Source: Octopus vulgaris (taxonomy: Eukaryota). Taken from it: a stretch of DNA of 64,000 bases. Where the stretch lies: positions 12,276,001 through 12,340,000 of the forward strand of contig OX597826.1 of assembly GCA_951406725.2 (NCBI GenBank), written 5' to 3'. The position numbers were made by a program, and so were the translations under genes. Shown one piece after another: positions 26,207-45,753 of this stretch (the first letter of the stretch is position 1; each line of letters opens with the position of its first letter). The notes under the pieces are model-generated. The model was not told where the DNA came from, ran no database searches, and saw nothing but the letters and a program-made list of their open reading frames with translations.

Positions 26207-26497
26207 TGTTTGTGGGGCGTAGGTGTGTGATTGTGTCTGTATATGTGTGTTTGTACAAGTGTGAAGTAGGGCGCATAATCATGCATACACAAACGTATGT
26301 TGTTTGGGGAAAATATGCCTAAGTAATGTAACAAAAAAAGGGGAAAAAAAGCTGATGAAGGCTGAACTATTGCTATTAGTGGGAAATGGAGACAAAAACT
26401 GCAGCAAGTTATTTACTGAAAGGGATTGCAAGTAAATTTACTTTATCGCAAGTTCACTAATGGATGACTTATTCTCAATTTGATCTTAACGTTGTGT

Positions 26498-35993: not shown

Positions 35994-36037
35994 ACACAAC
36001 GTTTCGGCTGATATACCCTCCAGCCTTCATCAGGTGT
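35994..36037 (-). ncRNA. Intact minimal type I hammerhead ribozyme of Penelope type
   Basis: acac-CTGATGA-a-ggctg-gagggtatat-cagcc-GAAAC-GTT-gtgt: full core, 4-bp stem I, 5-bp stem II, palindromic stem III. Confidence 0.85.
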
Positions 36038-43136: not shown

Positions 43137-43552
43137 CTTTTCTATTTTAGGCCCAAGGCCTGAAATTCTTGGGAAGTGTGTGTGTGTGTGTGGGGGGGGC
43201 AATCGATTAGATCGACCACCAGTACGCAACTGGTACTTAATTTATCGACCCCGAAAGGATGAAAGGCAAAGTCAACCTCGGTGGAATTTGAACTCAGAAC
43301 GTAAAGACAGAACAAATACTTATTTCTTTACTACCCACAAGGAGCTAAACACAGAGAGGACAAACAAGGACAGACAAACGGATTAATTCGATTAGATCAA
43401 CCCCAGTGCGTAACTGGTACTTAATTTATCGACCCCGAAAGGATGAAAGGCAAAGTCAACCTCGGTGGAATTTGAACTCAGAACGTAAAGACCGACGAAA
43501 TACCTCTAAGTATTTCGCCCGGCATGCTAACGTGTCTGACAGCTTGCCGCCT
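43137..43552 (-). mobile_element. Dimeric SINE C, 17-bp TSD
   Basis: TSD tgttgtgttg(c/t)tatatt encloses two C cores. Confidence 0.88.
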
Positions 43553-44089
43553 TGTTGTGTTGTTATATTGATCTGATGATGATGTGAAAGGTGACGTCGA
43601 TTATGACAGATTTAAATATAAAATACTGAGAGAAATTTTGTCCGACTTTCAAATAGTTCTGCCTACTCATCAGCCAGTAGTATTGATATTCACAGAGAAA
43701 ATGAATAATAAAATTAGAGAGAGAAGGAGTGTGCCGGATGTAGTGTAGTGAGATTCAATGTTTTATGATGAGGGGATAGTTTTCACTTTATTCAAGAAAG
43801 ATTAAAATCAATATGGATGAAATGATTTTCCTTTCAATGCTATTAATAATCCCATTGAGGAGGAATATAAATAGTTAAAAAGCATTGAATAGCTTTTCAC
43901 TTGATATTAAATTTAGAAGGGCATGGCGATCGTAGAGGTAAGATCGATTGTGTAAGAAACGGAACTAGTTTCGATTCCAGATTATTGACCCTTTCATTTT
44001 AATTTATTTAAAATAATATTTGGATGATCATGAACGTCACGTGATCTTTTTTTCCTGCTACTCTACATTAATAAGTATATGTCTAAGGA

Positions 44090-44515
44090 AGGCGGTGAGC
44101 TGGCAGAGACGTTAGCACGCCGGGCGAAATGTTTAGCAGTATTTCGTCTGTCGTTACGTTCTGAGTTCAAATTCCGCCGAGGTCGACTTTGCCTTTCATC
44201 CTTTCGGTGTTGATGAATTAAGTACCAGTTACGATGTAATCGACTTAACCCGTTTGTCTGTCCTTGTCCCCTCTGTGTTTAGCCCCTTGTGGGTAGTAAA
44301 GAAATAAGTATATGTCTAAGGTAGGGAGCTTGCAAAATTGTTAGCACGCCGGGAAAAATGCTTACAGGCATTTCGGCCGTCTCTACGTTCTGAGTTCAAA
44401 TTCCGCCGAGGTTTCCTTCTTTCGGGGTAGATAAAATAAGTACCACTTGAAATGAAATCGATTAGCCCTTGAAAGGAAATCGACTTAGCTGGCCTTGTGA
44501 TAAAATCTGAAACCA
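44090..44515 (+). mobile_element. Younger SINE C (19-bp TSD) inserted at the head of an older SINE C
   Basis: TSD aataagtatatgtctaagg at 44070-44088 and 44303-44321. Confidence 0.88.
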
Positions 44516-44860
44516 AAATTTACGTCATAGAAATGTATAATGTCACTTAGAAGGATAGATCAAGAGACGAATATTAGAGACAAACTGCTACCGCAATAAT
44601 TGTGCGATTAATTCTGTATTTCGGATATCAACATCCTGACTGAACTTGTGTATCTAACGTATTCTAGAAAGATTTTACGTTTCTTTGATGCAATATATTG
44701 ACTTTTGCAAGGCAGTAATGTCATTTCGTCAAAATATAAGGCATTGTGACGCATATTTGTCATCGAAAACAGATAAGCAAGAAGATAGGGAAAAACAATA
44801 ATGTATTTAGTACAGAAGTTATATTGTATCAGGCGTGTACACTGCTCTCACGACCAAGTT

Positions 44861-45411
44861 GGGGAATTACAACCGTGTTTCGTGGTCTGCTACCACAACA
44901 GCTCCTTTATAGGATCCAGTTAGCTCAAGACATCATCAGGAGGAACCACGTCCGGTTTCGGCCCCTACTCCTCTACCGTTTTGACGTGGCGGGGCTACCC
45001 CTTTCGGAGGTGTCTTCAGCTTTGGTGTTGGGTGCATGTCTTCTTTCTTCTTCTTTCTTCTGTTCCATGGCCTCTTCGATGTATCGTCAGCGAGTGTCAG
45101 CCGGTGACTGACTGACTTGTCAAATTTTTCCCTTTAAATACCTACCGCTAGGCTCCAGCAGGCAGCCCCAGCAAGTTGTCACGTGGCACTGTCTCACCTT
45201 AACTGACCAGTGAAGGCGCGTAGTCTTAGCCCGCGCATTCTCTAAACGACCGTCACCTGTCAGTCAGCGAAGCTGATTCAGTGTCAGCTTGTCTCACCTA
45301 GTGATGTTATTTCCCGCCGGCATGTTATGACTTTCAAGCCATATTTGGTCTTCCCGCTTCAGCCATATATAGAAGCTGGATTTCTCGACCGCCTCCTGTA
45401 CTCTCCTTATT
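44861..45411 (-). mobile_element. 551-bp GC-richer insertion, pLTR/retrozyme-like, with TATA/Inr and two HHR-like motifs
   Basis: Boundaries defined by the empty-site paralog at 42251-42435; agtt on both flanks; minus-strand tatttaaa (45140-45133), tcagt repeats, CTGAAGA..GAAACC and CTGATGA..GAAACA. Confidence 0.7.
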
Positions 45412-45753
45412 AGTTTTCTATTCCGAGCGTGGATTAAGGTTCGATATACATGTGAAATTCCGAAGAGGGCATCCTTGTTTTTTCAGATTATGGATATTCC
45501 AGCGTATGACACACTCATTTGGTTTACTTGATAGAACATATTGATAAATTCAAGCTGTGTCTCATCAAAATAAACTATCATAAGTAAAAGCCATGTTGAA
45601 CATCTTCAATCTGTACGGAACTTATACTAATCAGTAAGATGGTTTTGATTTAGAGATTACAAATGTTCACATAAGTCATTATTTTTATATCGCTTCCTTG
45701 ATTGTAATATCAATTGCTGGAATTGTTAACTGTACACTTAATTTCTATATAGT

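Follow-up and report, generated by a model that had tools for sequence, protein, structure and literature searches.

The segment at 44863-45418 on the minus strand of the window, by which we mean the whole 64,000-nt stretch of Octopus vulgaris DNA that was analysed, is almost certainly the 5′-truncated 3′ end of a HERO-like LINE encoding a reverse transcriptase (RT) and a restriction-like endonuclease (RLE). Comparison of related sequences makes it very likely that the 3′ UTRs of such LINEs carry a conserved RNA fold with a hammerhead core, and it is likely that this fold cleaves itself. The core is split between A9 and G10.1 at a four-way junction, a wiring that lies outside the six published block orders and is predicted to clamp the ends of the unit RNA for ligation. 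That a whole animal LINE clade uses this split hammerhead to make a circular, protein-coding RNA and replicates by reverse-transcribing it as a rolling circle is a proposal for which we consider the chances to be even.

Identity and extent of the element

The segment had been described in a first-pass annotation as a 551-bp non-coding insertion at 44861-45411. It is indeed a real dispersed repeat, but its bounds are 44863-45418 (−), and positions 45416-45294 hold the final 40 codons of a LINE ORF together with its stop, the rest being 3′ UTR. The features of this copy outside the ribozyme fold are as follows:

44863-45418 (−): family A HERO-like RLE non-LTR retrotransposon, 5′-truncated copy (ORF end and 3′ UTR)
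45294-45416 (−): terminal 40 codons and TGA of a ~1100-aa ZnF-RT-CCHC-RLE ORF, as read from the translation; longer copies share this C-terminus
45133-45140 (−): TATA-like box in family A, located in the 3′ UTR 160 nt upstream of the predicted ribozyme cut, with a putative promoter role
44973-45068 (−): 31-codon ATG frame, with a start private to the window copy

The stop codon lies at 45296-45294 and is followed by a 3′ UTR of ~430 nt. A search of the genome (2.8 Gb, 227 contigs) with window positions 44800-45480 as the query returned 2443 candidate copies, and the 40 that were scored are all 92-95% identical over ~556 nt. The 3′ end at window 44863 is shared by all 30 fetched loci of this family, termed family A, with a stagger of 1-2 nt between copies, while the shared sequence extends from 0 to >1500 nt upstream and produces nested 5′ ends. 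A ~3.9 kb unit with one ORF is visible in six longer family A stretches. The ORF comprises an N-terminal zinc finger, an RT domain (RVT_1, PF00078, E 2.6e-20), a CCHC knuckle and a C-terminal PD..E..K-type endonuclease, with the CCHC and PD..E.T..E..K.KY motifs located in its C-terminal part. A model of the C-terminal 356 residues has a mean pLDDT of 87.7, and its Foldseek matches at E<=0.001 are all R2 proteins (7/7). The element therefore combines a single RT ORF, a CCHC motif with an RLE, and fixed 3′ and variable 5′ ends, as expected of an R2-superfamily RLE LINE. The suspected linkage to an RT is thereby borne out, albeit with this type of LINE and not with a Penelope RT.

Named homologues of the ORF occur in fish, lancelet and bivalves. 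The 3′ flanks of the copies are unrelated to each other, some being AT-rich or microsatellite, so that there is no fixed multicopy-gene target. The HERO label is tentative and was drawn from the RLE motifs, the host range of the homologues and the lack of a fixed target. No relatives of the element were detected in viral contigs in two scans.

When the family A RLE was used as a protein query against its own genome, the matches listed were of 70-100% identity only. A second family of the same genome, family B, was found via a fish homologue as the query. It is younger, with ~1110-aa open frames and a 200-nt UTR, and blastn detected no similarity between this UTR and the window element. Since its copies (L102-L118 and L120-L126) are ~98-100% identical and many have uninterrupted ~1110-aa frames, family B has been recently active. 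The 3′ ends of family B copies often adjoin TA-rich sequence, and one near-full copy is preceded by a fragment of the family B ORF in inverted orientation (L128:1-162).

The sequence words on which a promoter upstream of the hammerhead motifs had been proposed are all present, with TATTTAAA at 45140-45133 and TCAGT at 45114 and 45110. The TATA-like box is found in 98-99% of family A copies and has no counterpart in the short UTR of family B; its retention at this level shows inheritance, not selection. From the stop codon to this box (window 45290-45100, −), the family A UTR contains several GTCAG/CTGAC repeats and long hairpins, and the TCAGT "initiators" belong to these hairpin repeats. The ATG frame of 31 codons from 45068 likewise exists, but it is not a family feature: the position of the T in its start codon is occupied in the other aligned copies by G (76), a gap (3), C (2) or A (1), with ~1% T. 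As for the suggested 4-bp target site duplication (agtt), its 5′ copy at 45412-45415 falls inside the element, and the window copy has a chance 4-mer only. Flanking direct repeats of ≥8 nt were present in 2 of the 56 copies with both ends, in both cases as TA microsatellite.

Several other repeats share the window, which is rich in TA, CA and AAT microsatellites and carries several short interspersed repeat copies, in both orientations, at 43300-44420. The pattern CTGANGA-N5-35-GAAA occurs 14 times, against 3.1 expected (for example at 26352-26386, +, and 36002-36033, −), and this excess may reflect minimal Penelope-type hammerheads of other repeats. In the genome at large, YIG-motif fragments in the upstream flanks of two loci (L031 and L032) resemble GIY-YIG remnants of Penelope-like elements.

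Predicted ribozyme fold

The fold uses the first GAAAC, the second CUGAUGA and a GUA site between them, and its cut is predicted at 44974/44973. Its parts are mapped onto the window copy below, in 5′ to 3′ order along the RNA:

45011-45016 (−): 5′ strand of the closing helix P0, overlapping the earlier CUGAAGA box; partner 44932-44927
44997-45010 (−): hairpin X with a GAAA loop, the fourth junction arm, between A9 and G10.1
44991-44996 (−): 5′ strand of stem II (10.x), upstream of the cleavage block
44983-44990 (−): 5′ strand of helix B, which corresponds to the interaction helix between stems I and II in SGC; partner 44952-44945
44969-44978 (−): block S, with stem III (44978-44975), A17 (44974), the predicted cut (44974/44973) and stem I (44973-44969)
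44953-44965 (−): block G, with the 3′ strand of stem II (44965-44960), GAAA (44959-44956) and stem III (44956-44953)
44933-44944 (−): block C, with a stem I strand (44944-44940) and CUGAUGA (44939-44933)
44927-44932 (−): 3′ strand of P0, immediately after A9
44863-44926 (−): 3′-terminal segment up to the fixed insertion end, which lies 111 nt past the predicted cut

The order of the fold is thus the 5′ strand of P0, hairpin X, the 5′ strands of stem II and helix B, and stem III up to the predicted NUH cut; then stem I, a 3-nt linker (44968-44966) connecting block S to block G, the 3′ strand of stem II, GAAA and stem III; and finally the 3′ strand of helix B, stem I, CUGANGA and the 3′ strand of P0. 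The gap between A9 and G10.1 is spanned by two extra helices, P0 and X, in a four-way junction. In the window copy, position 10.1 (44996) is A, while most copies have G, and stem II extends only 3 bp from the junction. Because it stopped after 556 nt and carries the A10.1-C11.1 mismatch, the window copy is probably inert.

Family B, despite its dissimilar UTR, retains every core letter, and its stems have changed in sequence yet remain paired. As in family A, GAAAC is followed by CUGAUGA, and the NUH lies 14 nt before GAAA. Both families form stem I from the 5 nt that follow the NUH and the 5 nt that precede CUGAUGA, and stem III from the bases on the 5′ side of the NUH and those on the 3′ side of GAA; in stem II, the six bases preceding GAAA find their partner in an upstream strand. 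Helix B connects the two linkers in both. Between the families, the sequences of these helices differ but their pairing is retained. The otherwise unalignable UTRs of the two families also have in common two motifs, at window 44905-44900 and 44895-44888 (−), together with a small hairpin, all downstream of the ribozyme. The 3′-terminal segment 44863-44926 is a candidate region for RT recognition and start, within which the motifs at 44905-44888 and the hairpin would be a candidate protein-binding site for that start.

Comparative test of the fold

Relatives of the element were collected in a metagenome scan, from which the best 80 of 150 related loci were taken; 72 of these have ≥130 nt past the match. 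The anchors GAAA...CUGANGA were found in 46 loci, and in 39 of these an NUH with a paired 15.2-16.2 was present at 13-17 nt as well. After removal of L235, whose linker is long, and of a duplicate, clustering at 85% core identity gave 26 clusters, namely 24 from the metagenome plus families A and B. Pairing between cognate strands was then compared with that between non-cognate strands over 10000 permutations, with kinship beyond the 85% clustering ignored.

Every helix of the fold passed this comparison, with 0 of 10000 permutations in each case. Stem I, which did not serve as an anchor, scored 4.73 of 5 pairs in cognate and 2.44 in non-cognate combinations, and the outer pairs of stem III scored 2.73 and 1.40 of 3, respectively. 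The corresponding lengths were 5.0 versus 3.8 bp for the upstream stem II, 6.7 versus 4.4 bp for helix B, and 7.0 versus 4.5 bp for P0. Most positions of stems I and III display four to five standard pair types among the 26 clusters, a number that argues against inheritance alone. A stem II placed directly after CUGANGA, as in plain SGC, was tried and rejected (2.54 versus 2.50 of 6, 4395/10000 permutations), and HDV-like and pistol wirings were rejected by eye against their consensus.

The P0-X-II four-way junction, with helices of ≥4 bp, was recovered in 18/26 clusters, 17 of them without an unpaired base, as compared with 76/650 non-cognate pairs; the 4-bp test failed in the remaining 8/26, the window copy included. 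Nor does MFE folding, which is blind to pseudoknots, lend the fold support, as it was uninformative (z of -1.1, with a different structure). The hammerhead core letters C3-A9, G12-A14, A15.1-U16.1 and H17 are all present. A15.1-U16.1, which served as an anchor, occurs in 26/26 clusters and G10.1-C11.1 in 25/26. N7 (U, A, C or G) and H17 (cleavage triplets GUA, GUC, GUU or AUA) vary in the way expected of a hammerhead, and the stem I-II linker, 3 nt in families A and B, is longer in some relatives. In 12/26 clusters, stem III and helix B are separated by a kink-turn signature, with GA on one strand and a 3-nt bulge followed by GA on the other; control bulges of 1, 2, 4 and 5 nt gave 0, 3, 1 and 3 clusters. 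The bulge of families A and B at this place measures 4 or 6 nt. A sharp bend here is what the wiring would need.

A looser core descriptor was matched within 700 nt of the ORF end in 41 of these best 80 loci. It also matches L178 and L212 farther out, as well as several upstream repeats. Over 284 kb, it gave 48 sense and 0 antisense matches, and in the 64-kb window it has a single match. Decayed versions of the core were recognised by eye in seven further loci, and the core was absent from 12/15 re-scanned loci, some of which are broken or short. Carriers of the core fall on many deep branches of a quick tree of 60 rows. In the octopus genome itself, the core pattern has 1990 matches against 1 for the control. 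The ribozyme lies within ~150 nt of the ORF in most families, at ~320 nt in family A, and 450-1630 nt after it in L178, L180, L192 and L212; such long UTRs might carry a promoter.

Terminal repeats and insertion ends

Among 30 near-full family A loci picked by their ORF 5′ region, 11 are joined upstream, at one fixed junction, to the 3′ UTR of a preceding copy, with nested starts, and two of these extensions reach the preceding ORF. The same junction leads into a preceding 3′ UTR in 7/20 near-full family B copies, where the longest upstream extension is at least 1675 nt. In the metagenome, the UTR runs into the N-terminus of an ORF in 5/48 loci with ≥600 nt downstream, and several loci contain unit-spaced direct repeats of 3.6-3.8 kb.

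From the predicted cut to the insertion 3′ end, the distance is 111 nt in family A and 119 nt in family B. When copies were selected through their RLE protein sequence, 25/30 reached the fixed 3′ end and 0 ended at the predicted cut, and no insertion is present at the cut in 84/85 aligned pieces. The two repeats of one insertion rank first or tied for identity in 6/7 family B pairs; in family A, a copy's own repeat ranks first in 1/7 pairs (ranks 1, 2, 2, 3, 7, 9 and 13; 4 pairs skipped). The 3′ flanks of family A match the tandem continuation for 1-2 extra nt only (31/50, then 15/31, then 2/15), a signal too weak to build on.

Starts of 5′ ends exactly at the predicted cut number 9 in family B, as against 6, 6, 1 and 1 at four control positions, and 2 true starts were found in family A. 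A strong stop at the predicted cut is therefore not supported, the 9 family B starts comparing with 6 and 6 at the upstream controls. In a single case (L240:965-1244), a partial copy of 280 nt has its end one base beyond the predicted cut of an element on the same contig. Family B is covered by contigs from four presumed-RNA runs, and three of these runs yielded a contig across the head-to-tail junction, as would equally be expected from genomic tandems.

Proposed cycle and alternatives

A template that is whole across the cut, is copied from an internal start and yields more than one unit would most simply be a circle. We accordingly lean towards a cycle in which the fold cuts the element RNA once per unit and the ends are rejoined into a circle that the RT copies. 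A genomic copy of more than one unit would be transcribed through two ribozymes, each of which would cut after its NUH. Through P0, stem II, helix B and stem III, the 5′ and 3′ termini of the unit would be paired with each other and the cut ends held together, and the ribozyme or a host ligase could then seal them into a unit-length circle. The RT would start downstream of the join, at a distance of ~111 nt in family A or 119 nt in family B, then cross it and go round, sometimes for more than one turn, leaving seamless partial tandems without a poly(A) tail. Only insertions of more than one unit could found the next round.

The same genomic anatomy would also fit an RNA that is cut by the ribozyme and stays linear, its ends clamped by P0, II, B and III while the RT jumps the nick; the RT would then start 111-119 nt from the 5′ end and land on the 3′ terminus of that RNA or of a different one. 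The R2 RT is known to jump from template to template end to end, and exact starts at the predicted cut, such as failed jumps would leave, are seen in eleven copies. However, R2 template jumps tend to add bases, whereas here the join is exact in 84/85 pieces, and the 9 starts at the cut, compared with 6 and 6 at the upstream controls, do not amount to a strong stop. We therefore regard this alternative as unlikely. Rather unlikely, too, is a template of uncut read-through RNA from tandem copies, in which the hammerhead would cut late or with the assistance of a protein, or would serve in another role such as trimming host read-through, translation or RNP assembly. In its favour, the copies cross the predicted cut site unchanged, and hammerhead cleavage of the PAc Penelope element is described as dispensable in vitro and protein-dependent (PMC11167929). 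Yet a linear template would lose part of its upstream extension in each round, while extensions of at least 1.7 kb and nested 5′ ends are found, and the catalytic letters and the NUH are kept across deep branches.

Far less credible than either is the original reading, in which the insertion is a retrozyme or a solo pLTR that carries its own promoter and a uORF and releases a ~80-nt RNA by means of two type I hammerheads in tandem, and this model is already largely refuted. The letters of both sets of boxes do exist (CTGAAGA at 45019-45013, GAAAC at 44959, CTGATGA at 44939-44933 and GAAAC at 44881), the TATA-like box is kept in family A, and the 3′ end of the element does recur as a terminal repeat upstream of full-length copies, as in a Penelope-like pLTR. 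However, the RT is not of the Penelope type. The window piece is a 5′-truncated insertion and not a solo repeat, its copies are nested truncations of a coding element that run into the RT-RLE ORF, the ATG is private and there is no target site duplication. Family B keeps the first GAAAC and the second CUGAUGA only, lacking the CTGAAGA box and the second GAAAC; a stem II straight after CUGANGA is at chance, as noted earlier; and Rfam returned no match to the insertion at the gathering score and no hammerhead up to E 10. What survives of the earlier hammerhead proposal is a conserved core, which belongs to a single, differently wired fold built from the boxes in between. As there would be one ribozyme and not two, no ~80-nt RNA would be released.

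Comparison with known systems

The split hammerhead fold most closely resembles type SGC. In Eckert 2023 (PMC10085705), hammerheads are divided into blocks S, G and C, and type SGC is validated and described as having a typical 3-nt stem I-II linker and a helix that joins the far sides of these stems and can attach to stem III. The present fold shares with type SGC (HRIMA-1 and variants) the S-G-C order, all core letters, a short and often 3-nt linker, and a fourth helix that is attached directly to stem III and connects stems I and II at their far sides. Unlike in type SGC as described there, block S is preceded by the 10.x strand together with one of the two interaction-helix strands, and the resulting gap is closed by P0 and hairpin X in a four-way junction. 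Block C is therefore broken between A9 and G10.1, since the 10.x strand lies 5′ of block S, whereas the same text assumes that block C is not broken at this point. Judged by its sequence, the fold would work like SGC, but it is not filed as SGC because its block C is not intact. Nor does it form the pseudoknot-free three-way junction of types I, II and III, as stems I, II and III cross. Insertions into the hammerhead core are, in the accessible part of Perreault 2011 (PMC3088659), of one or two bases only, and no tested precedent for a break between A9 and G10.1 was found in the literature searched. Apart from type-CSG and HRIMA-5, the published motifs come from metatranscriptomes, with one GCS candidate from genomes of known organisms, again according to the available text (PMC10085705); the present fold, by contrast, occurs in animal-type LINEs, with ~2000 matches in one genome. 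If the fold is as predicted, a non-circularly permuted hammerhead, a class so far almost only metatranscriptomic, would be present in animal genomes at high copy number, and the assumption of an unsplittable block C would be broken.

As in the HERO clade, the element has a single ORF with an RT and a C-terminal RLE and no fixed target (PMC4640811, PMC9004415), and its homologues likewise occur in fish, lancelet and bivalves. It differs from HERO elements as described, in that the consulted portions of Kojima and Jurka 2015 (PMC4640811) and Frith 2022 (PMC9004415) mention no ribozyme, terminal repeat or circular template. A search of full-text literature, subscription journals and Repbase Reports being outside its scope, found neither a link between HERO and hammerheads nor a later use of the term "type-SGC". 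For annotators, the present reading would imply that HERO 3′ UTRs double as terminal repeats. The element also shares with R2 its superfamily, its endonuclease fold and a self-cleaving RNA that would free the element from a longer transcript; the R2 ribozyme is HDV-like and sets the 5′ end of a linear template (PMC7650587, PMC13580325), whereas here a hammerhead lies in the 3′ UTR and copies read through its predicted cut.

The proposed cycle itself has its closest counterpart in Penelope elements. These, too, have a hammerhead in a terminal repeat and form head-to-tail partial tandems (PMC4209133, PMC11167929), and a circular template with reverse transcription of more than one unit was proposed for them by Cervera and de la Pena in 2014 (PMC4209133). 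An RT start internal to the RNA, as suggested here, was shown by Frangieh et al. 2024, according to whom cleavage is dispensable in vitro, hammerhead mutants are without effect on in vitro insertion and unprocessed RNA is the main template (PMC11167929). A direct demonstration of the cut-circularise-roll cycle is not contained in the portions of this literature that were consulted (PMC4209133, PMC11167929). If our reading is correct, an R2-superfamily LINE would gain the cycle proposed for Penelope in 2014, and a young family with intact ORFs, combined with a one-letter knockout of the ribozyme, would make that cycle directly testable. The two systems would nevertheless have arrived at it with different components: the Penelope elements combine a telomerase-like RT and a GIY-YIG endonuclease with minimal type I hammerheads that act as dimers, whereas the element described here has an R2-type RT with a C-terminal RLE and a self-contained, pseudoknotted monomer.
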